This document shows, piece after piece, positions 6,940-40,367 of a DNA stretch of 64,000 bases. How positions within the stretch are numbered: position 1 is the stretch's first letter; each line of letters begins with the position of its first letter. A model generated the notes under the pieces. It had not been told where the DNA came from. It ran no database searches and saw nothing but the letters and a program-made list of their open reading frames with translations. Where the stretch lies: the IMG/VR virus record IMGVR_UViG_3300035204_001027, positions 1 through 64,000 of that record; one strand, 5' to 3'. Source of the stretch: a virus. Position numbers and translations under genes: made by a program.

Positions 6940-6951
6940 TTGTGCTAGTAT
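6923..6951 (+). promoter_or_regulatory. sigma70-type promoter
   Basis: TTGACA-N17-TAGTAT with extended -10 TG. Confidence 0.7.
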
Positions 6952-6959
6952 TAGGTATT

Positions 6960-7556
6960 GTGATAAAATATCATTCACTGGAAGAACCAGAGTTATTGCG
7001 TCTTTCTATGGAGGATGAAGATACTGAATCCTTCGATGAGCTAGTTAAGAGAACGGAAAGAAAATTACACTTATCCATGTTAGCTAAGTCTGGCAATCCG
7101 GAGTTAGCTGGTGAAATTTGCCAACAGGCTTTTATTAAATCTTGGAAAAATATTAAAAAATTTAAATGTAAGTCTTCTTTTTATACTTGGATATACCGTA
7201 TATCTCATAATCTTTTAATAGATCATTACAGAAAAGTTAAAAGAAAAAAAGAGCAATCCTTTGAAGAAAGAATGGAATCAGATCCCTTTTTTGAGACTAA
7301 AACGCCCTTGATAGAGAAAACGGCTTATGATAACCTTAACAATGAAGAGTTAATGAAACAGGTAGATATGGCCCTAGAGAAGCTTTCGGAACCTCACAAA
7401 ACGACTTTTGTTCTCTACGAGATAGAGAGATTAAGCTATAAAGAAATAGCTAAAGAAATGAGATGCTCATTAGGAACGGTAATGTCAAGGCTTTTCTACG
7501 CGAGGAGACAGGCTCGTAAATCTCTTTCTAAAATTTTAGAGCTTGACAAACTTTAA
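6960..7556 (+). CDS. ECF (RpoE-like) RNA polymerase sigma factor
   Basis: region 2 QQAFIKSWKNIKKF..KSSFYTWIYRISHN; region 4 LSYKEIAKEMRCSLGTVMSRLFYAR; start moved to GTG 6960 downstream of promoter. Confidence 0.92.
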   Translation: MIKYHSLEEPELLRLSMEDEDTESFDELVKRTERKLHLSMLAKSGNPELAGEICQQAFIKSWKNIKKFKCKSSFYTWIYRISHNLLIDHYRKVKRKKEQSFEERMESDPFFETKTPLIEKTAYDNLNNEELMKQVDMALEKLSEPHKTTFVLYEIERLSYKEIAKEMRCSLGTVMSRLFYARRQARKSLSKILELDKL

Positions 7557-16222: not shown

Positions 16223-17428
16223 ATGAGCGAAACGAAACTACCTACATTATACAAACGAACCACTGTTGGAAAGGTTCAAGAGTGGACTATCGAAGTGGTC
16301 GATGACAAATTCCGTACAATTTCTGGACAGCAGGACGGCAAGAAGATTACAAACAAGTGGACAATTTGCACCCCAAAGAACGTGGGTAAGGCTAATGCAA
16401 CCACTGGAGCAGAGCAAGCACTTAAAGAGGCAGAGGCGAAACATCAGAAGAAATCTGAAGCGGGTTATCGTCTCTCCGTAAGCAACATAGACAAGAAGAA
16501 ATTTTATGTGCCTATGCTGGCGAAAGATTTCAAAGATAAGAATCGCCAGAAAGAAGTGCTGGGCGAGATTGGTTCAGAAGAAGATAACACAACTGGATTC
16601 GGTGCGCCCGTATTCTCTCAACCCAAGCTAGACGGCATACGTTGTATCGCCATGCGTGAGGGATTGTTTACCCGTACTGGTAAGGAGATTACTGCCGTGC
16701 CTCATATTCACGAAGCACTAAAGCCACTCTTTGAGAAGTATCCTAATGCTACTCTTGACGGTGAATTGTATAATCATGCTTACAAAGATGATTTCAACAA
16801 AATCATTCATCTCGTTCGCAAGCAAAATCTTACAGAAGAACATCTTGTAGAGAGTAAGGAGATGATTCAATACCACATTTATGACGCTCCCGTGATAGGC
16901 AAGGATAATCCATTCCGTAAAGGTGGATGTTATACGGAGAAGGATTTGTTTTCAGATAGGACTTCAGTTTTGGATGCTCAATTTCCAAATTTGGGTTTAG
17001 ATAAAGAAGATTGTCTTGTGATAGTGGAGACTACCGAAGTAGACAGTAGAGAACATCTTGATGAATTGTATGGAGAATATGTTGAGTATGGTTACGAAGG
17101 ACAAATGATTAGGCTCGATGGGCCTTACGAGAATAAACGCTCGGCAAAGTTGCTCAAGCGAAAAGACTTCATCGACGAAGAATATGAGATTCTTGGATAT
17201 GACGAAGGAATCGGCAATCGCAAGGGAACAGTAAAGAGTTTTAAATTTAAGACCAAAGAAGGCAGGAGCTTTAGCTCAAATGTTAAGGGTACATTTGAAT
17301 ACCTAACAGAGTTGTTAGAGAAAGCGGATGATTTAATAGGTAAAGAAGCTACGATTAAGTATTTTAATCTCACGCCTGACGGTGTGCCTCGTTTCCCCTA
17401 TGTAATTGCGATTAGAGATTATGAGTAA
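16223..17428 (+). CDS. ATP-dependent DNA ligase
   Basis: QPKLDGIRC (KxDG), LDGELY, YEGQMIR, LLKRK, PRFP; promoter 16186-16215. Confidence 0.95.
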   Translation: MSETKLPTLYKRTTVGKVQEWTIEVVDDKFRTISGQQDGKKITNKWTICTPKNVGKANATTGAEQALKEAEAKHQKKSEAGYRLSVSNIDKKKFYVPMLAKDFKDKNRQKEVLGEIGSEEDNTTGFGAPVFSQPKLDGIRCIAMREGLFTRTGKEITAVPHIHEALKPLFEKYPNATLDGELYNHAYKDDFNKIIHLVRKQNLTEEHLVESKEMIQYHIYDAPVIGKDNPFRKGGCYTEKDLFSDRTSVLDAQFPNLGLDKEDCLVIVETTEVDSREHLDELYGEYVEYGYEGQMIRLDGPYENKRSAKLLKRKDFIDEEYEILGYDEGIGNRKGTVKSFKFKTKEGRSFSSNVKGTFEYLTELLEKADDLIGKEATIKYFNLTPDGVPRFPYVIAIRDYE

Positions 17429-30958: not shown

Positions 30959-31283
30959 TTTATAAATTGGTGAGGAATGGAGTCGGAAGAGAGTTCCGAA
31001 CAGCCCACGTGTCGTGGCTCATGCGAACACCTCACCTTTTTTAAATAACTTCAAATAATTCTCACCCTAAATAAGAATAAATACAAATAGGAACAAATAG
31101 AAATGTAAATAAATAATAAATATTTTTGTAAGTTTGTGCTTGACATTTTGCGCAAGGTCTGGCGGCCCGGGCCGCGAAACTTTTTTCACTTTTTTTAAGA
31201 ATAATGCTTGACTTAACAGTTAAACCTATGCTATACTTTATAAAGAGTTAAGGATAACAACTAAAGAGAAAGATAAACATAAA

Positions 31284-32153
31284 ATGGCACGTTCCGCTAA
31301 TCAAACTGATAACTATAACTACACCGTCGAATCCGTTAAACTATTCACTCCAGATGGCCAAGAGTCTGGCTGGTATGGCAATCGTCGAACTGATGATGGC
31401 TCTATTTTGGGCATCTGCACCGAGCAGTATAACATTGTTCAAAACAAGGACATATTCGGCAAGGCCGATGAAGCTATTGCTGACAGAGGTTTAGAACCCA
31501 CCTCAAAGCGCGTCGTAGTAAGCGATGGTGGAGCCAAAGTCCGTGGCATCTATGACTTTACTAATGAAGTCAAAAAGGTGAAGGGCGTTGGTGATGAGAT
31601 GGGCTTCCGTCTAATCGTTAACAATTCTTTTGACCGTAGCTTACGCATTAGCTTCCAACTTGGATTGCTGCGCCTAGTCTGCACCAATGGAATGACCACT
31701 CTTGAGAAAGAGTTCGACCTAACCAAAAAGCATTCTGCTCAATGCAAACTTGATGACCTATTGACAGATGACAATCTGGACAAGGCTTTTAACAAGTTCG
31801 AGGCTTCTCTCGGAGTGTACAGTCGTCTTGCTGATGTAAAGCTCAAGCAAGAAGAGGGGCTGAATGTTTTACAGCGTTTGGCAAAGGCTAACACCATTAG
31901 TGAAAAGCTGCGCGAAGGTATCGCTCACATTTGGAATAATCCAACCTACTCGGAGGATAAGGCTCGCAACCTTTACAACCTCAACAATGCCGTGACCCAG
32001 TACGTCACTGAAAACGTGTCAGAGGACAGGTTTGAGTACGCGAACCGTATCACCAGCCAAGTGCTGCGTTCCTTCAACCGTGCTACGAAGAGCAAGTCAT
32101 CGCTGACCAAGCTGACCTCTGCTCTCCCTGCACCAGTGGTTGCAAATAACTAA
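31284..32153 (+). CDS. DUF932/DUF945-like phage protein
   Basis: YNIVQN, NSFDRS, GLLRLVCTNG, NLYNLNNAVT. Confidence 0.75.
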   Translation: MARSANQTDNYNYTVESVKLFTPDGQESGWYGNRRTDDGSILGICTEQYNIVQNKDIFGKADEAIADRGLEPTSKRVVVSDGGAKVRGIYDFTNEVKKVKGVGDEMGFRLIVNNSFDRSLRISFQLGLLRLVCTNGMTTLEKEFDLTKKHSAQCKLDDLLTDDNLDKAFNKFEASLGVYSRLADVKLKQEEGLNVLQRLAKANTISEKLREGIAHIWNNPTYSEDKARNLYNLNNAVTQYVTENVSEDRFEYANRITSQVLRSFNRATKSKSSLTKLTSALPAPVVANN

Positions 32154-32176
32154 ATAATAAAATACAAATAACAAAT

Positions 32177-32206
32177 CGCTCACCCTTACGGGTGGGCATT
32201 TTTTTT
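32177..32206 (+). terminator. intrinsic terminator
   Basis: GCTCACCC-TTAC-GGGTGGGC then T-run. Confidence 0.85.
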
Positions 32207-32293
32207 GCTTGACTTCGGGGCCCGGGTTGTCAAGCTTTTTCGGTGTGACATATTGTCTCTTGACTTTCGGTGTTTTGTGTGGTACATTGTAGT

Positions 32294-32407
32294 ATGAAAT
32301 CCGATCACAGAGAATTGTTGTTTGTTATTGGCCTTGGAATGGCCTCGTTTATAGTTATCATACTTACGGGAGTTTACATGGAAACAAAAGGATTTGGCAC
32401 TTGGTGA
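32294..32407 (+). CDS. 37-aa membrane peptide (not in ORF track)
   Basis: promoter 32260-32288; paralog of 39549-39647. Confidence 0.65.
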   Translation: MKSDHRELLFVIGLGMASFIVIILTGVYMETKGFGTW

Positions 32408-32456
32408 GTAAAAAAAGTGCTTGACAAACTGACGGAAACCTGCTATACTATTATTT

Positions 32457-32618
32457 ATGACAGTTAAAGAAAAGAAGAAGTTGGACTTTGTGTTGTTCAT
32501 GCAAGTGGTTGCTGGCACACGCAACGTGAAACCTATTGACCGTTTGATGGCTCTCGCAAAAGATGTTGTCGCTATCCGTGACGGTGAAGAACCTAAAGAA
32601 TCGAAGGAGCTTATTTAA
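32457..32618 (+). CDS. 53-aa hypothetical protein (not in ORF track)
   Basis: ATG 7 nt after promoter 32421-32449. Confidence 0.65.
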   Translation: MTVKEKKKLDFVLFMQVVAGTRNVKPIDRLMALAKDVVAIRDGEEPKESKELI

Positions 32619-32619
32619 C

Positions 32620-33084
32620 ATGGAAAATCATTGGAACAAAAAAGTAGAATTACTCTATCGTAACTGTGGCACAAACTGGGCTGTGTTTATTCGTGGCGCA
32701 GCCGATGACGTAGAACAGGAGTTTTATGGTATGTATAACCACGGAGCGACTGACGGAGAGATTCAATGGCAAACACCAGAGAACGCTTATTTTTGGACTA
32801 CTAGAGAAAAGCTCGAAAAGTGTCTCACGAACCGAGCATTGTTCTGGCTATTGAATCAAGACGGACACGAAGAATCTGACGAGGAAGAATTGCTACCCGT
32901 AGCGAAACAGATGGCTGAAACTCTTATGGGTGAGATGGTTCAACAGTCGAACTTGATGACCTTTGGGAATACTTATGACACTTATGAACTTGGTGAAGTG
33001 TCAGCGGAATCGAGCGAGGAGCATATCAACAACGGCCCATCTACCGTGCAAGTTAACATCAGCAGATTAATGGGATCTCTATAA
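32620..33084 (+). CDS. acidic hypothetical protein
   Basis: AAGGAG upstream of ATG 32620. Confidence 0.7.
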   Translation: MENHWNKKVELLYRNCGTNWAVFIRGAADDVEQEFYGMYNHGATDGEIQWQTPENAYFWTTREKLEKCLTNRALFWLLNQDGHEESDEEELLPVAKQMAETLMGEMVQQSNLMTFGNTYDTYELGEVSAESSEEHINNGPSTVQVNISRLMGSL

Positions 33085-33127
33085 AAAAGGGCTTGACAAT
33101 CAAGCTGAAACGTGCTATATTATACTC

Positions 33128-33856
33128 ATGAAACTACTTGGAATCGACACAAACGCAAAAACCCGTAAAGGCCAGAAAAAAGGTTATATGACGGGAATCT
33201 CTTACCTCGCACCCAGCAATGCCAGCGGTGTGATGAACACTTGCCCATCAGCGAGCAAAGGCTGTCGTGCAGCTTGCCTGTTTACGTCAGGGAGAGGCCG
33301 TATGAATCCTGTTATGGAAGCTAGAATCAACAAGACAAAACTTCTTGCCAGTGATTCGCTGTCATACTTAAAACAGCTTAAACGTGAGATTGAAGCTCTA
33401 ATGAAACGCGCAGCGAAGAATGATAAAACCGCCTGTGTTCGTCTCAATGGCACTAGCGATATTGCTTGGGAGGAATACTTGTTAGACGGAAAGAATATCT
33501 TTGAGCATTTCCCGAATTGTCAATTTTACGACTACACAAAGCGTCTGGCTCGTGTTGCTGATTATGCAAACGGAAAGTTGCCGAGCAACTATCACTTGAC
33601 CTTTTCTCATAGTGAAAACACTAGCGAAGAAACTGTGAAAGATGTTTTGAATCGTGGCGTGAATGTCGCTGTGGTTTACAAAGACGTTTTGCCGGTAGAA
33701 GATTTCGGTGGTGTAGAGGTCGTCAATGGTGATGAAGATGATTTGCGTTTTTTAGATGCTATCGGAAAAATCGTTGGCCTAATCTATAAGAAAACTAAAG
33801 CAACAGAAGATGAATGGAATGGATTTGTGCGCCTCACGAAAGTAGAGGTGGCATAG
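33128..33856 (+). CDS. GP88-like phage protein (CxxxxxxCxxxC, radical-SAM-like)
   Basis: CPSASKGCRAACL..SGRG, VRLNGTSDI.WE, FYDYTK, YHLTFS, GDEDDLRFLD. Confidence 0.75.
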   Translation: MKLLGIDTNAKTRKGQKKGYMTGISYLAPSNASGVMNTCPSASKGCRAACLFTSGRGRMNPVMEARINKTKLLASDSLSYLKQLKREIEALMKRAAKNDKTACVRLNGTSDIAWEEYLLDGKNIFEHFPNCQFYDYTKRLARVADYANGKLPSNYHLTFSHSENTSEETVKDVLNRGVNVAVVYKDVLPVEDFGGVEVVNGDEDDLRFLDAIGKIVGLIYKKTKATEDEWNGFVRLTKVEVA

Positions 33857-33916
33857 ATGATAGCTATAACAATTTTCATGTGTTGGTGTGCGTGGTCTAT
33901 GCTCAAAAGAATGTAA
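33857..33916 (+). CDS. 19-aa hydrophobic micropeptide
   Basis: MIAITIFMCWCAWSMLKRM, directly after upstream stop. Confidence 0.5.
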   Translation: MIAITIFMCWCAWSMLKRM

Positions 33917-33965
33917 CTCTTAAATAGATAATATTAAATAGGTTAGTAAAGTATTACAATTAAAT

Positions 33966-34039
33966 AGTGGTGTGGCCAAGTGGTAAGGCGTTGCTCTGCA
34001 AAAGCGAGATCGTGGGTTCGACTCCCACCACCACTTCCA
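33966..34039 (+). tRNA. tRNA-Cys(GCA)
   Basis: acceptor AGTGGTG/CACCACT, anticodon arm TTGCT-CTGCAAA-AGCGA, T-arm GTGGG-TTCGACT-CCCAC, U73, encoded CCA. Confidence 0.96.
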
Positions 34040-34122
34040 CTTTGGCGGCCCGGGCCGTCAAGCATAAAAAAACTTTAAAAAATCGCTTGACAAATGGGCG
34101 TTTATGTGTTATATTATACCTA

Positions 34123-34407
34123 ATGAAAAACATAAAACCTATCGACGGCGGCGAATCTTTTGCAGTACATCAACACATCATCCTAAAGAACTTCTGGGAG
34201 TATTACCTCGGAGAGACTGATGAAGATGGCGTGGCTTTTGGCTATGTGATGGGGTTTGAGAATGAGTGGGGCAGCGTCTATATGCCAGAGATTGAGCCTC
34301 ACATTATAAGCATTGCACGGGGCAGAGAGCTTGAAGATGTTATGCCTCCATTTAACTATAAGTGGGAAGAGTCTGCCCTTCAAGATTTTCTCGAAGAAAG
34401 TGCTTGA
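34123..34407 (+). CDS. acidic protein, DUF2958-like
   Basis: AFGYVMGFENEWGSVYMPEI; start after promoter 34087-34115; family call from recalled motif. Confidence 0.55.
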   Translation: MKNIKPIDGGESFAVHQHIILKNFWEYYLGETDEDGVAFGYVMGFENEWGSVYMPEIEPHIISIARGRELEDVMPPFNYKWEESALQDFLEESA

Positions 34408-34439
34408 CAAACAGGAGAAAGTGTGGTATATTATAGCAT

Positions 34440-34691
34440 ATGAAGTTACAAGAAGGAAGAGAAAGAGCAAGTAATCTGAAACTGGGCGCAGTCTATTTTC
34501 ATGATAATGAGGCAAAACGGCTAGACCAAATCATAAGCTGTCAAGGTGTGTGGCTTGTTGATGCCGTTGGTGATGGGTATGGTGAAACTATCCCCTTTGA
34601 TGAGGTCGGGTACGCTGACCTTGATGAGGTGCAAGATTTCGTTGATGATTGCGAAGTGGCACTAGGAGAGAAAGCTCCTTTAGATTATTAA
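34440..34691 (+). CDS. acidic hypothetical protein
   Basis: promoter 34404-34432. Confidence 0.7.
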   Translation: MKLQEGRERASNLKLGAVYFHDNEAKRLDQIISCQGVWLVDAVGDGYGETIPFDEVGYADLDEVQDFVDDCEVALGEKAPLDY

Positions 34692-34700
34692 AATTAATCC

Positions 34701-34765
34701 TTGACAAAGTGGTCAAGTTTGTGGTATTATTATATACAGTTGAGCGAGAAATCGTTCTTTGAAAA
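34701..34765 (+). promoter_or_regulatory. promoter plus boxA-like element
   Basis: TTGACA-N18-TATTAT, then GTTCTTTGAAAA at 34754-34765; no ORF follows. Confidence 0.65.
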
Positions 34766-34768
34766 TTT

Positions 34769-34922
34769 AAGGGTGAAATTGGTGTTGCTGGACTGGATAA
34801 CAAGGTTCGAAGGTCAAACAAGGCGACAGCCTGACGCAGGAAAGCCCCTAGTGGAAGCGCGACGAAGCTAGACGGTGATACGATACTGGTCGGGTCAGGT
34901 TCGAATCCTGACACCCTGAACA
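34769..34922 (+). ncRNA. tRNA-like RNA of about 150 nt (tmRNA-like tRNA domain or interrupted tRNA)
   Basis: AGGGTG/CACCCT acceptor-like stem, canonical T-arm TCAGG-TTCGAAT-CCTGA. Confidence 0.6.
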
Positions 34923-34923
34923 A

Positions 34924-35227
34924 TTTAAGCTGACGACGGTTGGCTTAAGGGAATGGCTGAATATCCCTCCAACATAAGGGGAAAGGCATGGGGCCACCTG
35001 AGAGAGTGTTATCGCATGACTCTTGTGGTTTTAGTAGACTGGTTAACTTGAACTGTATTGTGTGCTGGTCTTGATGGTAATGCAGCAATCCATCTTCCCA
35101 TTAATTTATAGGGTGAAGTAACAAACGTCCGCAAAGAGGAAACGGCCCAATAAACAAAGTGCAAGGAGTTGTGGCGTAACGGTGCATCGTGCCACGTAAA
35201 GCACTTAAAAAATTCTCCCTTTTTTTT
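34924..35227 (+). ncRNA. putative structured non-coding RNA
   Basis: serial hairpins, no + strand ORF in track, ends in T-run. Confidence 0.4.
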
Positions 35228-35531
35228 GTCGATCATAAATACCTTTTTTTGATCGGCAATTTTTTTTGTCGATCATTCGTGAGCGGCTAATTCTTTTGCC
35301 AATCAATTATGGCAATTAATGAGCGACAAAGAGGGTAATTGTTTTGCAAGATAATACTGTTTTCGTGGGATATCTCCTCCAATAATTTCGTAAATAGCAC
35401 GAATTTCACATCGGAGAAATACCCCCTTTTTACGAAACTTAAACGTGATACTCATCCGGCGGCCCGGGGCCTGAAAAAAAATGAAAAAACCGCTTGACAA
35501 ACCCTGATTTGTGTGGTATATTATATCCATA

Positions 35532-35837
35532 ATGAACGACAAAATAGAAAACCTAATAAACAACCACATCACTCGACTTCAGCAGAACATCCTTGATCGT
35601 GACCACTCGGTCATGGCGTGTGGTGCTCGCAGCAATCCATTCCACGCTCAACTCGATGAGATTGACCTCAAGAATATAGCCTCTCTCAGAGAGGGTCGCA
35701 TCCCACAGTACAGCGACCACATGGCTTGCCTCGTTGGTGATGGCCCACATGATATGAGCGAGTTTCGTGACCTGACTTACGAGAAGGAGCATGAGGCTGC
35801 TGGCCTCTATGAGGGGGTTGAGCCGAGCCTAACTTAA
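35532..35837 (+). CDS. hypothetical protein
   Basis: start corrected to first ATG after promoter. Confidence 0.7.
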   Translation: MNDKIENLINNHITRLQQNILDRDHSVMACGARSNPFHAQLDEIDLKNIASLREGRIPQYSDHMACLVGDGPHDMSEFRDLTYEKEHEAAGLYEGVEPSLT

Positions 35838-35960
35838 TAGGCTACCCAGCCTAGCCGCCAAAGCTGCGCTTGAGACACAGCGCGACGAGGGGCTAGGCTC
35901 AGGGCCCGGGCCCTGAAGAAAGTGCTTGACAAACACCTGTTTATGTGTTACATTATAACA

Positions 35961-36089
35961 ATGAAACGACGAATCAAAGCACGGGTCAACAGAGATGGCC
36001 TGATGGGCAGCGCGTCTCGTGTCCATCGTGTGAGGAAGGGCAAGGGCTCTTATTGTCGTAAGTCTAAACACAAGAAAAATGAGTGGTAA
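35961..36089 (+). CDS. arfA: ArfA-like alternative ribosome-rescue peptide, 42 aa (not in ORF track)
   Basis: RVHRVRKGKGSYCRKSKH matches ArfA signature KGKGSYxRKxKH; own promoter. Confidence 0.75.
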   Translation: MKRRIKARVNRDGLMGSASRVHRVRKGKGSYCRKSKHKKNEW

Positions 36090-36255
36090 CTATTATGATG
36101 ATGAAGGTTACTTGGGCGATCACTATGTCGGTCAAAGTAAGTATGACTATGTGCTCAAGGAGTGCAAGCGGTGTGGTCAGAAGGTAGACATGAGTTCTGA
36201 TCATGCTATCTGTAATTCATGTGCCGATGCAATGGAGCGAGGGTGGGAGTATTGA
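36079..36255 (+). CDS. 58-aa zinc-finger protein (not in ORF track)
   Basis: CKRC...CNSC; overlaps arfA-like stop. Confidence 0.65.
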   Translation: MSGNYYDDEGYLGDHYVGQSKYDYVLKECKRCGQKVDMSSDHAICNSCADAMERGWEY

Positions 36256-36311
36256 TACTCTTAACCCTATTAATAGTAATAACTATTTGGTTGATGGTTA
36301 AAAGATACTGA
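36252..36311 (+). CDS. 19-aa hydrophobic micropeptide
   Basis: TTG start overlapping upstream TGA; MILLTLLIVITIWLMVKRY. Confidence 0.5.
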   Translation: MILLTLLIVITIWLMVKRY

Positions 36312-36380
36312 GGGCCCCGGCCCTGAAAAAAGTTAAAAAAACTGCTTGACAAACAGCCATTTGTGTGTTATATTATACCA

Positions 36381-36587
36381 ATGATAAGCGAGATGGATAA
36401 GTTTAAAGAAGATGCAGCTTTCAAGCTGTTTGGTCGCAGCCGCATACTTGCCATCGCTGGCAACGGGTGCGTGAAGTGTGGCGAGAGCGCGGTTGATTTC
36501 CGTGACGAACTCTCCCGCAAGGAGTACGGCATCTCTGGCTTGTGCCAGTGCTGCCAAGACAGCGTCTTTGGTGTGGAGGAGGACTAA
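36381..36587 (+). CDS. zinc-finger protein
   Basis: CVKC...FRDELSRKEYGISGLCQCCQD. Confidence 0.75.
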   Translation: MISEMDKFKEDAAFKLFGRSRILAIAGNGCVKCGESAVDFRDELSRKEYGISGLCQCCQDSVFGVEED

Positions 36588-36893
36588 TGAGATTAAACGA
36601 GATTAGCCCAGAGAGCATGGGCATGAGGCCCACGGACAAGCCTAAATTGATAGACGCTACGCCTACGCCTATGCATGACCAAAAGGATTGGATTCAGGAC
36701 AGTGATGGGACATGGGTATGTGATTGGTACATGGAGGACGGGTATGATGTCAGATGCAGAGATTAGATTAAGTGAGTTATTAGATAGCTTTAATAGTGAA
36801 GAAGAATGGCTAGCATATAGGGAATCTTATCCCTTAATACCAATAAGCTCAAATGATGATGTCCCTTGGAATTATGATATGAAAATCTTCTGA
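36587..36893 (+). other. two small acidic genes (36587-36766, about 36744-36893)
   Basis: coupled ORFs ending at next palindrome. Confidence 0.55.
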
Positions 36894-36962
36894 GGCCCCG
36901 GGCCTGAAAAAAAGTAAAAAAACCCCTTGACAAGAGGCTGTTTCTGTGGTATATTATGTCAT

Positions 36963-37208
36963 ATGAAAAACGATACAGTAACTCAAACCATCACCGAAGC
37001 CCAAGTCACCCAGCGCAAGCTGAATGAGATCAACAACAATTTCAACCTCACCGATGAGTACGTCGAGCATTTGGATCAAGCCGTGACTCAACTACTAGCT
37101 AACAAGGAACGCCTGAATAAGGCTCTAGGCATCCTCAACAAGCTGCCTTCTTCCTTGGAGGATAAGTTCGTCAAGGTCAATCCTAACCAGCAAGAACGCC
37201 GCTGGTAG
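36963..37208 (+). CDS. coiled-coil hypothetical protein
   Basis: start after promoter 36927. Confidence 0.7.
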   Translation: MKNDTVTQTITEAQVTQRKLNEINNNFNLTDEYVEHLDQAVTQLLANKERLNKALGILNKLPSSLEDKFVKVNPNQQERRW

Positions 37209-37302
37209 GCCTTGGCCCTTCGGGGCCCGGGCCCTGAAAAAAAAGTAAAAAAAGTGCCCTCCAGCCCTTGACAAGGGGTCATTTGTGTGCTATATTATGG
37301 TA

Positions 37303-37584
37303 ATGAAAAACGATACTCCAACTTACACCCTCTGGAACGGCCCTACTCTAATCGACACTTTTGAGCATAACCGTGAGGGCTATGACTCTGCTCTAGAGCG
37401 GGCTTTCGACCTTGGCCCTAGTGCCTCCATCTACTCCACTCGTGATGACCTTGTGTGGTCTGCCGAGGCAGATGAGCCAAATGAGCCTAGCGATGCGTGG
37501 CACGATGCCGACGCGCTTGCCTCTGCTGGATGGGGTACTGATGAGGACTACGGCTGCTATGGCCCAGAGGATTGCTGGGAATAG
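37303..37584 (+). CDS. highly acidic hypothetical protein
   Basis: C-terminal DADALASAGWGTDEDYG. Confidence 0.72.
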   Translation: MKNDTPTYTLWNGPTLIDTFEHNREGYDSALERAFDLGPSASIYSTRDDLVWSAEADEPNEPSDAWHDADALASAGWGTDEDYGCYGPEDCWE

Positions 37585-37686
37585 CAATCTCAGGCCCCGG
37601 GCTGTCAAGCAAAAAAAGTTATTCACAATCGAAGAAAGTGCCTTGACAAACGGGCGATTCTGTGGTATATTATAAGTATAACAACG

Positions 37687-38808
37687 ATGAAAAACTACAC
37701 ACCGACAATCGCCCAGAGAACTAGGATGATGACCGCTATTGAAAGCGAGCTAGAACGAGAGAATCCGAATTATGCACATTTGACTATTACCTTTGGTATG
37801 ATGCAGCACGCTGCTGATGAAGGTACAGGAGGAGACCATTACGACTATTTAGAGAGATTGTGGAATATGTTCAATCTCGAAAAAAGATGAAAAAAGTGCT
37901 TGACAAACGGTCGATTATGTGGTATATTTAGGTATTAAGATTATGATAAACGAGACAGAACTATTACTGAATCAAGAGGTAGAAGTGACATTCCAACGAA
38001 GCCAACTTTGGGGCAAGCGTGGTCACGTTCTAGGCATTATGGCTGATGGTCGTACATTAGATATTGAGCTACATGGTGGCAAACGGGTATTCCTAGATGT
38101 CACTTTTGTGGATGAGATTCGTGAACGTACACAGTTCGCCAAGACCGAGCAAAGCCTCGGCCCAATCGCTAACCATCTCATTAAGGATACGCTTTAATTA
38201 TGAAACTCATTGTAAAGGAAATGCCCGCAAGGCAAAAGTTCTATCAGTTAGTAGATGCTGCGTGTTACGCTAGAATGGGATGCTCCATGCATGACCTACC
38301 TGATTTCCCATATAGTGATTACTATGATGATGAGATTATGTCTCATGAGGAAATGGTTAATGCAGCAGATATGTGCATTGAGGATCTAGTGCTTGAGCTT
38401 AAGAATGATAACGAAGGATATTGGTTATGAGGAATTGGCTTGATATGTATGGTGGGTGGCTTGCGATAGTTCTCTATTTCATTCTAACAACTATTATTTG
38501 GAAATGGTAAAAAAACAAAAAGAACAAAAGCCTGTAATGGCTGAATTAGTACGCGTGTTAAAAGATAAGCCTAAAGGTCTTACTCTTAACGAAGTCAAAG
38601 GCAAGGGCTTGCAACTACCTTCTGGCCCTGCTCTAATCAATGGACAATGGACTTGGTAATTATGAATGAAGAATATGCAAAACATCTAATGAAAGAATAT
38701 AAAGAAGAAAGCCCATTTGAATTATGGGTGTGGTTCGTTGCTGCTCAATTGCTTTTCGGTATTATACTTATAGGCGTAATAGGTCTTTGTATGTGGATGG
38801 CTTCTTAA
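37687..38808 (+). other. small genes 37687-37890, 37943-38197, 38200-38430, 38427-38510, 38504-38659, 38662-38808
   Basis: two promoters, coupled ORFs, two encode single TM peptides. Confidence 0.6.
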
Positions 38809-38942
38809 TCAGGGGCGTCTAATAGAGGGCCGTAATAGTAGTTGTAAGGCGCTTTCTCATAGCGCCTAGGCTCAGGGCCCGGGGCTCAAAAAAAAGTAAA
38901 AAAACCGCTTGACAGCACCCCATATCTGTGGTATATTATAGC

Positions 38943-39116
38943 ATGATTAAACGACAAGATTGGACTATCACCTTCGACGATGGCAGCACTGCATCCTACT
39001 TTAACATGACCTCTCTGGAGGCTGTGAGGTGCGCTGTGAGTGACTGGTATCCAGCCAAGCGTGTGGTGGCATGGGTGCCCCGTCAGGTGGACGTGTACAG
39101 CATAGCACTGGACTAG
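38943..39116 (+). CDS. hypothetical protein
   Basis: start after promoter 38909. Confidence 0.65.
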   Translation: MIKRQDWTITFDDGSTASYFNMTSLEAVRCAVSDWYPAKRVVAWVPRQVDVYSIALD

Positions 39117-39120
39117 GGTC

Positions 39121-39180
39121 ATGCTGCTACTGGCTCTAATAGTGGTGTGGTGGGTATGGCTAGCAGTAGACCAGTATTGA
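39121..39180 (+). CDS. 19-aa hydrophobic micropeptide
   Basis: MLLLALIVVWWVWLAVDQY; stop abuts palindrome. Confidence 0.5.
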   Translation: MLLLALIVVWWVWLAVDQY

Positions 39181-39238
39181 GGGCCCGGGCCTTGAAAAAA
39201 GTCCTTGACAAGGGGTCATTTGTGTGGTATATTATAGT

Positions 39239-39412
39239 ATGACATTTAACAAAGGTGACAAAGTAGCACACAGGGATAACCCGATCCATTGGAGAGGTGA
39301 GGTGACAGAGGTAAAATTAAATGGGCGAATAAAGGTGATGCTCATTAACGGTAATGAGGTAGAGGTCGGGCCATATGTGCCATTGAAGCTAGATGTCTTT
39401 GCTGACGAATAA
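39239..39412 (+). CDS. small SH3/KOW-like hypothetical protein
   Basis: FNKGDKV...GEVTEV. Confidence 0.6.
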   Translation: MTFNKGDKVAHRDNPIHWRGEVTEVKLNGRIKVMLINGNEVEVGPYVPLKLDVFADE

Positions 39413-39548
39413 GCAATGACCCACCCCCACGGGGGGAGGGGGTACCCCCACCCCTATTCGAGGCCCGGGGTTTGAGACATGACCCGGATGGGGTGCCTCT
39501 CTAGAAAAAAGCCCTTGACAGATCGACACTTTCGTGGTATATTATGGT

Positions 39549-39647
39549 ATGAAAGATGATTATAGAGACATTTATTTCGTGATTTGCATCGGTATATTTT
39601 CCTTCCTCGCTATTCTAGCAACAGGAATTTACATCGAGACGCTTTAG
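39549..39647 (+). CDS. 32-aa membrane peptide (not in ORF track)
   Basis: promoter 39515; paralog of 32294-32407. Confidence 0.65.
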   Translation: MKDDYRDIYFVICIGIFSFLAILATGIYIETL

Positions 39648-39757
39648 CCGTTCTTTTTGACTCGGCTCGACCCCTGATTCGGCCCCCGGGGTGCCTGTGA
39701 ATAACTTTTTTTAAAAAACCCCTTGACAAAGGGTCATTTCTGTGGTATATTATACTA

Positions 39758-39922
39758 ATGAAAACGATAAAAAGGTTCAACGACGAATTCAATCGCATGT
39801 TTAACGATGAGATCTTCATGCCGATGATAAAAATTTCAGGTTTACTGATTTTCCTCGCCATTATTTTGGATTTTGGCTTTCAGATGATCGAAGCAATCGA
39901 TATTTTAACGGTGGGACCGTAG
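39758..39922 (+). CDS. 54-aa membrane peptide (not in ORF track)
   Basis: promoter 39723; single TM. Confidence 0.6.
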   Translation: MKTIKRFNDEFNRMFNDEIFMPMIKISGLLIFLAIILDFGFQMIEAIDILTVGP

Positions 39923-40110
39923 ATGTCTCACCCTATATGATAAACTATACTATGTTTGAAGATCAATTAGACGAAAACGAAATTTTAATGCGGAATTTGC
40001 TTGACAAAGTCTGCGAAGGCGTAGAAGTTCCCTCGGATTCAGAAAGTGAAGAGGCGAACGAACTACAAAACGGATAAATCAAAAGATGAAAGAGGGAGAT
40101 TTAAAAAAAA

Positions 40111-40170
40111 ATGTTATTAGCAGTAATTATTCTGGTTTATGTATTCGGCTCGATGACTCAACGACTTTAA
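40111..40170 (+). CDS. 19-aa hydrophobic micropeptide
   Basis: MLLAVIILVYVFGSMTQRL. Confidence 0.4.
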   Translation: MLLAVIILVYVFGSMTQRL

Positions 40171-40367
40171 ATGATAAAAACGACATGACTAAATGAGTTA
40201 AAGTATTCAAGTGGGGGCGTAACCCCCCCCTATTTTTGAAAAAAAACGCTTAAGTTTTACGCTTTTGCGAAGGTGGGGGGGCTATTTATATCTGCCCGAG
40301 ACTTGTCGAAATACCTGTTTTTCATATATCTCTTGTAATATACTGATATAACTGTGTAATCACTTAT

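Follow-up and report, generated by a model that had tools for sequence, protein, structure and literature searches.

Palindrome–promoter junctions of rearranging gene cassettes in a virus genome resemble the promoter-early stem-loops of T4-type phages

The window analysed here is a 64-kb stretch of virus DNA, the first 64 kb of the linear, 95,511-base IMG/VR record IMGVR_UViG_3300035204_001027, which CheckV estimates to be about 50% complete; what we say of the whole contig (95.5 kb) spans only about half of the genome. All contig genes lie on the + strand, and among their products are rIIA, rIIB, an ATP-dependent DNA ligase, a clamp-loader-like ATPase, PhoH, a ClpP-type protease, the large terminase, collagen-like fibre proteins and a phage sigma factor. 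Our subject is an array in which short GC-rich palindromes (dyads) alternate with genes, each dyad being followed by a promoter and a start codon, so that the region appears to be built of portable expression cassettes. A sequence-only reading of the window had counted 13 such palindromes, and all of them were found where it had placed them (31162, 32216, 34046, 35461, 35899, 36311, 36893, 37223, 37594, 38877, 39182, 39464 and 39684). The array and its junctions are the following (nt, nucleotides; aa, amino acids; −35 and −10, promoter hexamers):

31162..40230, + strand: whole cassette array, from the first palindrome to the closing canonical terminator
31162..31286, + strand: junction 1; palindrome 31162-31175 with 7-bp arms, a T-run after it; −35 at 31208; ATG at 31284 after a 46-nt leader
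31284-32153, + strand: DUF932 gene (289 aa), driven by junction 1
32208..32296, + strand: junction 2; hairpin 32208-32234 with the outer stem GCTTGAC/GTCAAGC around CCCGGG at 32221-32226, then T5
32260 (−35) to leaderless ATG at 32294, + strand: promoter of junction 2
34046..34125, + strand: junction 3; palindrome 34046-34057, directly after tRNA-Cys; −35 at 34087; leaderless ATG at 34123
35461..35534, + strand: junction 4; palindrome 35461-35471 with a 1-nt centre spacer; A-tract; −35 at 35494; ATG at 35532
35899..35963, + strand: junction 5; perfect 18-nt palindrome 35899-35916; −35 at 35926; leaderless ATG at 35961
36311..36383, + strand: junction 6, start of unit W6; variant palindrome 36311-36324 with the centre CCCCGG; abutting TGA; A-tract; −35 at 36346; ATG at 36381
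36893..36965, + strand: junction 7, start of unit W7; palindrome 36893-36905 with a 1-nt spacer; abutting stop codon; A-tract; −35 at 36927; ATG at 36963
37223..37305, + strand: junction 8; palindrome 37223-37234; A-tract with a 12-nt insert; −35 at 37268; ATG at 37303
37594..37689, + strand: junction 9; weak palindrome 37594-37602, then GTCAAGC; −35 at 37643; ATG at 37687, 15 nt past the −10 hexamer
38877..38945, + strand: junction 10; palindrome 38877-38885 with a 1-nt spacer; A-tract; −35 at 38909; leaderless ATG at 38943
39182..39241, + strand: junction 11; palindrome 39182-39191; abutting upstream stop codon; −35 at 39205; leaderless ATG at 39239
39464..39551, + strand: junction 12; bare CCCGGG at 39464-39469, without hairpin stability; −35 at 39515; leaderless ATG at 39549
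39684..39760, + strand: junction 13; palindrome 39684-39691; −35 at 39723; leaderless ATG at 39758

The dyads follow the consensus GGCCCGGGCC, with CCCGGG as the core in 12 and CCCCGG in the one at 36311. Their perfectly paired arms are 3-9 bp long, a spacer of 1-2 nt sits at the centre of six, and the central runs vary in length (CCCGGG, CCCCGGG, CCCGGGG and CCCCGG). The hexamer CCCGGG occurs 24 times in the contig, 12 of these (plus the one CCCCGG variant) within 31,162-39,691, and a motif scan of the kind proposed earlier placed the other 12 in coding DNA, with neither an extended dyad nor a promoter beside them. The claim that the element is confined to 31.1-39.7 kb thus holds within the 95.5-kb contig and, with the genome about half covered, does not extend beyond it. 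In the window, 17 copies of CCCGGG are found against 4.6 ± 2.1 in dinucleotide shuffles, and the composite pattern CCCGGG-N10-40-CTTGAC is seen 11 times against an expectation of 0.07. The stop codons of upstream genes adjoin the dyads at 36311, 36893 and 39180, just as had been described. What follows the dyad is A-rich in 11 of the 13 cases, and an A-run such as TGAAAAAAAGTAAAAAAA separates the dyad from the −35 box in most units; a T-run comes only after the palindrome at 31162 and the extended hairpin at 32208-32234, and as a class the dyads thus lack the form of intrinsic terminators. The arms had been said to vary symmetrically, dyad symmetry being the thing conserved; conservation is, however, concentrated in the 10-nt core and less so in the arms, and arm covariation outside the core is weak (permutation test, p = 0.05), which argues for symmetry less firmly than had been claimed.

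Behind each dyad, 18.5-48.5 nt on, comes a promoter composed of TTGAC(A/T), a spacer, TGn and TA(T/C)A(T/C)T, the spacer being 17 nt in 12 of the 13 junctions and 18 nt in the last. Most junction promoters match the consensus at 10-11 of 12 positions (9 of 12 for that at 32260), all have TG ahead of the −10 hexamer, and the stretch 32.4-39.7 kb holds 15 of the contig's 17 strongest promoter matches, each on the + strand. A promoter of the kind reported earlier is present in all 13 units, and the 1-4 small genes said to follow it need correction: units hold 1-6 open reading frames (ORFs), and, with the 289-aa DUF932 and 242-aa GP88-family proteins among their products, not all are microgene units. 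The ATG stands 5-9 nt past the −10 hexamer in most of them, at the expected transcript start and with no room for a Shine-Dalgarno sequence, and the first gene of each unit is thus predicted to be leaderless; inner genes of units carry ordinary GGAGG-type ribosome-binding sites. Early timing of the array and leaderless translation are what we infer. The phage also has an RNA polymerase sigma factor of its own (6942-7556; phrog_1740, E 2e-27), which is consistent with the array's host-type promoters being given up later in infection.

Five of the 18 array promoters have no dyad and are equally strong; at these, the stop codon of the upstream gene lies within about 15 nt of the −35 box or inside it:

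32421..32459, + strand: dyad-less internal consensus promoter; ATG at 32457
33093..33130, + strand: dyad-less internal consensus promoter; ATG at 33128, GP88-family gene (242 aa)
34404..34442, + strand: dyad-less internal consensus promoter; upstream stop codon inside the −35 hexamer; ATG at 34440
34701..35104, + strand: dyad-less internal promoter with no ORF behind it, then structured RNAs
37900..37945, + strand: dyad-less internal consensus promoter; ATG at 37943

The junctions are tied to one another by short exact repeats. The near-identical promoter spacers noticed at the outset are exemplified by a 24-nt identity between 37266 and 39203, and the identity that was seen to run into first codons by ATGAAAAACGATAC, common to 36963 and 37303. 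Across junctions, exact matches of 11-24 nt come from the −10 region, the dyad and the A-tract alike, and the dyad was accordingly rejected as the longest exact repeat among them.

That the cassettes move is evident from related contigs, which come from marine metagenomes and have lengths up to 136-178 kb. The close relative IMGVR_UViG_3300009103_000097 (L001) has the same 13 units, 79-97% identical and with twelve positions collinear; in it W6 (36315-36896) and W7 (36897-37225) stand in the opposite order. Comparison of the six junction sequences involved indicated that the left side of the dyad moves together with the gene before it, and each A-tract variant with the promoter and gene behind it, so that every one of the three new joints falls within the dyad or where the A-tract begins. 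The exact repeats common to the three junctions, at most 16 nt, are too short to mislead an assembler, and an assembly error is therefore unlikely. In the same relative, the membrane microgene of W2 is replaced by an unrelated 40-aa ORF, the middle gene of W6 is missing, the last gene of W9 has been replaced, and W4 is present as a strongly divergent promoter-plus-gene allele. Identity between the window and L001 forms a mosaic, 90-100% at junctions and 20-60% in some gene bodies. Duplication occurs, too, as the microgenes of W2 (32294-32407) and W12 (ATG at 39549) are paralogues, 52% identical over 31 aa.

In L093 (80% GP88 identity), the W4 gene precedes the 34440 gene and the RNA block, the array has gained a homologue of the gene found at 27.7 kb in the window, and the dyads are degenerate G-run/C-run versions. 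L288 (85% PhoH identity) is without W11 and W12 and contains other units, and L084 carries a gene of the 27.5-kb type between DUF932 and GP88. Alignment with relatives had been suggested as a check on cassette gain, loss and reordering at the element, and both the changes in L001 (the W6/W7 transposition, the W2 replacement and the gene deletion) and the further differences of order and content in L093, L288 and L084 answer it positively. All cassettes have the same orientation in the window, L001, L093 and L288. In relatives of about 70% protein identity the leaderless promoters are retained, and another stem-loop, TTGGCRC...GYGCCAA, takes the place of the dyad:

L084, 3280-3360: TTGGCRC...GYGCCAA stem-loop
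L084, 4600-4680: TTGGCRC...GYGCCAA stem-loop
L302, 520-600: TTGGCRC...GYGCCAA stem-loop
L083, 1540-1612: TTGGCRC...GYGCCAA stem-loop

One copy of this type resembles a sigma54 −24/−12 box (TGGCAC-N5-CTGC), probably by coincidence. A scan with lineage-specific junction patterns added no new close relatives.

The core recurs outside this lineage. A scan of IMG/VR for GGCCCGGGCC followed by CTTGACA returned seven other AT-rich contigs, each with 2-8 elements upstream of promoters, and arrays of this kind were not seen with two control palindromes of equal composition; a later scan added a 200-kb contig. We rejected the view of the seven as independent lineages, since proteins shared among them make them one group, of gut and rumen origin (L026, L029, L039, L045, L063, L064, L067, L327 and L331), mutually related and distant kin of the Enterococcus phages EF1 and H1. 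In these contigs, G(G)CCCGGG(C)C stands 20-50 nt before consensus promoters and behind a separate canonical terminator, at densities of 18 sites in 14 kb (L063) and 16 in 12.8 kb (L331), and indels of cassette size separate the closely related L045 and L063. No protein common to our phage and the gut/rumen loci compared was detectable. The element as a trait of the wider large-terminase clade was likewise rejected, Bacillus phage Slash having no CCCGGG in its first 50 kb, and none was found in 14.7 kb of the early region of Enterococcus phage H1, kin of the gut group.

We consider it probable that each junction is a composite of boundary and promoter, similar to the promoter-early stem-loop (PeSL) cassettes of T4-type phages, with the dyad acting as an RNA stem-loop boundary and the junction repeats serving as short homology for shuffling. 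Its four parts would be the short GC dyad GGCCCGGGCC, an A-rich spacer like an UP element, a near-consensus extended −10 promoter for the host sigma70 polymerase, and an ATG at or a few nt from the predicted transcript start; given that position of the ATG, the first gene would need no ribosome-binding site and would be translated well only from its own promoter. The homology patches of 11-24 nt would let general (micro)homologous recombination excise, re-insert, duplicate and replace cassettes, and recombination via repeated junctions would keep all units in one orientation. As an RNA stem-loop, serving as attenuator or 3'-end protector, the dyad most likely delimits the preceding unit on its 3' side, in the manner of the PeSL stem-loop. 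On the side of DNA exchange, the uniform orientation, the spread of the 11-24-nt blocks across the junction and the replacements that end at the promoter or ATG all fit short-homology recombination, and the single direction of the cassettes fits exchange through an asymmetric junction. On the side of RNA, the dyads come directly after stop codons, three of them abutting, which points to a hairpin; a structural role is further suggested by the tolerance of 1-2 nt at the centre of six dyads, by changes from G.U to G-C and from U-A to C-G in orthologous copies, by the two copies that are part of canonical terminators (31162 with its T-run, 32208-32234 with T5), by the G-run/C-run versions in L093 and by the different stem-loop at the same position in the relatives of about 70% identity. 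The stability of the RNA hairpin exceeds that of shuffled sequences in 8 of the 13 dyads (z <= -1.6).

Several observations weigh against this interpretation. The other five dyads are no more stable than shuffles, and the mean z-score is -1.3; 11 of 13 precede an A-run, not a U-run; and the last cassette and other operons end in ordinary terminators, while each dyad comes coupled to a promoter. Conservation of the 10-nt core goes beyond the needs of a hairpin, the covariation of the arms is weak, as noted, and the arms bear no RNA-strand signature in the form of an excess of G.U over A.C (12 vs 9). As for exchange, the edges of the mosaic blocks between the window and L001 are not enriched at junctions (about 5 of 16 vs about 3.7 expected), and many of the divergent blocks between relatives end inside genes rather than at the element. 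The dyad had been put forward as a recombination point, and the three W6/W7 joints within the interval of dyad and A-tract agree with this, whereas the blocks ending inside genes do not. The initial remark that no recombinase is visible was also confirmed: the contig has no tyrosine recombinase (PF00589), serine recombinase, Y1 transposase (PF01797), RecA or integrase/resolvase, and no recombination protein at all was identified in this half of the genome. PHROG scans of 20 further ORFs returned the sigma factor, rIIB and an ERCC4-type nuclease, with no recombinase and no candidate operator-binding protein among them.

Among the alternatives, the best placed, and still unlikely, is that the dyad is the operator of a DNA-binding protein of two-fold symmetry, either a phage repressor or activator of early shut-off or a host factor, shuffling being a side effect of the repeats. 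Such a protein would account for a 10-nt core kept far better than the arms and for the position of all 13 dyads upstream of a promoter, with none standing alone. The distances from dyad centre to −35 box cluster at 18.5, 28, 39.5 and 48.5 nt, a phasing of about 10 bp (Rayleigh R 0.64, naive p about 0.003), and the unrelated gut/rumen group has the same core before promoters and after a separate terminator, in a scan where the control palindromes gave none. The spacers are, however, copies of one A-tract module, so that the units are not independent and the phasing is explained. Furthermore, the cores of L093 are degenerate, the relatives at about 70% identity have another element, and scans of the contig yielded no candidate protein. 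Three more counts speak against the regulator site proposed by the sequence-only reading, namely the five array promoters of 18 that do without the element, the 30-nt span of its distance to the −35 box, and the shift of 1-2 nt in centre spacing in 6 of 13 copies, which would displace the half-sites of a dimer.

In a broader form, which we regard as improbable, the CCCGGG dyad would be the recognition site of a putative protein, a nuclease or recombinase or else a regulator, that defines the cassette borders and was adopted independently by at least two unrelated groups, the marine lineage and the gut/rumen group with its GCCCGGGC element. Both would then possess an integron-like, site-directed system for exchanging early-gene cassettes. 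The recurrence in gut and rumen phages keeps such a protein site alive as a possibility, yet it adds one lineage only.

A shade less credible still is a dyad without function, carried along as a hitch-hiking part of the junction repeat and kept alike by gene conversion among the copies. The weak and uneven hairpin stability would be expected of a passenger, as would the fast degeneration of the element in L093, its absence or replacement in relatives of about 70% identity that keep the promoters, and the five internal array promoters that do without it. A passenger would hardly, on the other hand, persist as a GC-rich dyad in 13 copies within DNA of 40% GC, 160 times above chance, nor does hitch-hiking explain why all lineages examined, and T4-type PeSLs too, have some stem-loop at this position, or why orthologous copies show compensatory changes. 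Least probable of all is a site for site-specific recombination or cleavage, at which an integron-like enzyme, or a CCCGGG-specific nuclease together with the phage ligase, cuts and rejoins cassettes: the three W6/W7 joints map to the dyad and A-tract start, the varying centre runs resemble possible joint scars, and the phage has an ATP-dependent DNA ligase (16223-17428), but the contig, with half of the genome unseen, lacks a tyrosine recombinase, serine recombinase or Y1 transposase, a symmetric site should yield inversions where all cassettes of the window, L001, L093 and L288 have one orientation, replacements also end at the promoter/ATG or within genes, and microhomology of 13-16 nt suffices for known phage recombination systems (PMC2839356).

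ORFans make up nearly the whole content of the cassettes. In a scan of 20 small cassette ORFs, 18 gave no Pfam match at E <= 0.05, and no match rose to a curated cut-off. The closest approach is a leaderless 42-aa ORF (35961-36089) that matches Pfam ArfA at 24.3 bits (E 2e-5; curated cut-off 25.5) and may be a phage-borne mimic of alternative ribosome-rescue factor A; three others have weak, sub-threshold matches only. The host-takeover or anti-defence function proposed earlier is inferred from where these genes lie and from how small they are. Hydrophobic ORFs of about 19 codons have their ends at or just before cassette borders (33857-33916, 36252-36311, 39121-39180 and 40111-40170); two of them supply palindrome-abutting stop codons, similar ORFs are found in L288, and they may be genuine membrane micropeptides or else belong to the junction module. 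Between the eleventh and twelfth units, at 39412-39480, a run of C- and G-tracts (cccaccccc...gggggg...ccccacccc) surrounds the bare CCCGGG and is conserved in kind in L288 (900-1000). The ORF-free stretch 35150-35450 contains direct repeats, T8-GTCGATCAT, at 35220-35236 and 35260-35276, inverted repeats of 13-35 nt reaching 35330 and a second pair at 35386-35437, and could hold 3' structures of RNAs, bind a protein or be an origin-like region. The remaining features of the array are:

32178-32197: canonical terminator just 5' of junction 2
33966-34039: tRNA-Cys, immediately before palindrome 3
34926-35104: manA RNA (RF01745, 59.7 bits; gathering score 55.2)
40213..40237, + strand: ordinary terminator (GC hairpin and T-run) that closes the last cassette, in place of the palindrome

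Nucleotide searches with 31.0-40.0 kb against 50,697 GenBank phage records, in near and distant modes, gave no match. The nearest protein matches are remote: those of the large terminase are 24% identical and belong to Bacillus and Lactococcus siphoviruses, and those of rIIA, at 33-35%, to Ruegeria and Phaeobacter phages. WhiB, a mark of actinobacterial hosts that might have explained leaderless genes, was looked for and not found. We take it to be an uncultured marine lytic phage, not T4-like, with the array as its probable hyperplastic early region; the genomes of its relatives measure 140-180 kb.

PeSLs are mobile regulatory cassettes of T4-type myoviruses (Arbiol et al. 2010, PMC2839356; Comeau et al. 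2014, PMC4122927) and have been proposed as a route by which these phages swap small host-adaptation genes. In the present array the PeSL layout and type of rearrangement are seen in an unrelated marine phage lineage, with the new feature of a promoter and start codon fused in a block of about 45 nt that would give leaderless mRNA; by virtue of this block, a cassette would carry its own transcription and translation signals and be insulated from read-through. Early cassettes bounded by palindromes may then be a general device by which large lytic phages maintain a gene library that changes quickly. That two unrelated groups have CCCGGG in common poses the question of whether structure and homology are all that is at work, or a protein site as well.

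Of the known systems, the repetitive extragenic palindromes (REPs), which can stabilise upstream mRNA, share with our dyads the short, GC-rich, intergenic form without a U-tract; here, in contrast, the palindromes are in a phage, always coupled to a downstream promoter, with no RAYT/Y1 transposase (PF01797) in the contig. The attC sites of integrons similarly provide imperfect palindromes between small mobile genes in a row, with gain, loss and reordering, but they are 57-141 nt long against the 10-18 nt seen here, integron cassettes are promoterless and served by one common promoter where each of ours has a consensus promoter, and no IntI-type recombinase (PF00589) was found in the 95.5-kb contig, about half of the genome. 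Closer are the gut/rumen arrays joined by GCCCGGGC, with their CCCGGG core 20-50 nt 5' of consensus promoters, rows of small genes and mosaic relatives; they differ in that their genes have Shine-Dalgarno leaders, a separate terminator precedes the core, and the core is invariant over much deeper divergence.

The closest parallel is with PeSLs, and the analogy drawn in the sequence-only reading is upheld by the published descriptions (PMC2839356, PMC4122927). In both, a stem-loop of G- and C-runs, an AT-rich stretch, a strong sigma70-type promoter and the start of a small gene follow in that order; the units cluster in a hyperplastic region rich in ORFans; between close relatives, the flanked genes are inserted, deleted, replaced or displaced; and the stem-loop sequence differs from lineage to lineage. 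Short-homology recombination was proposed for the shuffling of PeSLs as well (PMC2839356). The PeSL stem-loop is an effective transcription terminator, as assayed with a reporter in RB49 (PMC2839356, PMC4122927), and PeSLs are also characterised by mini-circles during infection; by sequence, a T-run comes after 2 of the 13 dyads of our array. PeSLs end in a Shine-Dalgarno sequence and start codon, and the ATG here stands, leaderless, at the predicted transcript start; the dyad here is a zero-spacer palindrome with a SmaI site and is followed by A-runs instead of U-runs; and the phage, by its large terminase (24% identical to Bacillus siphoviruses) and the rest of its genome content, is not T4-like. 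In the literature searched, no PeSL cassettes were found in non-T4-like phages. We therefore class the array as PeSL-like, distinct in its non-T4 marine phage, its zero-spacer SmaI palindrome, its A-tract spacer and its leaderless start.

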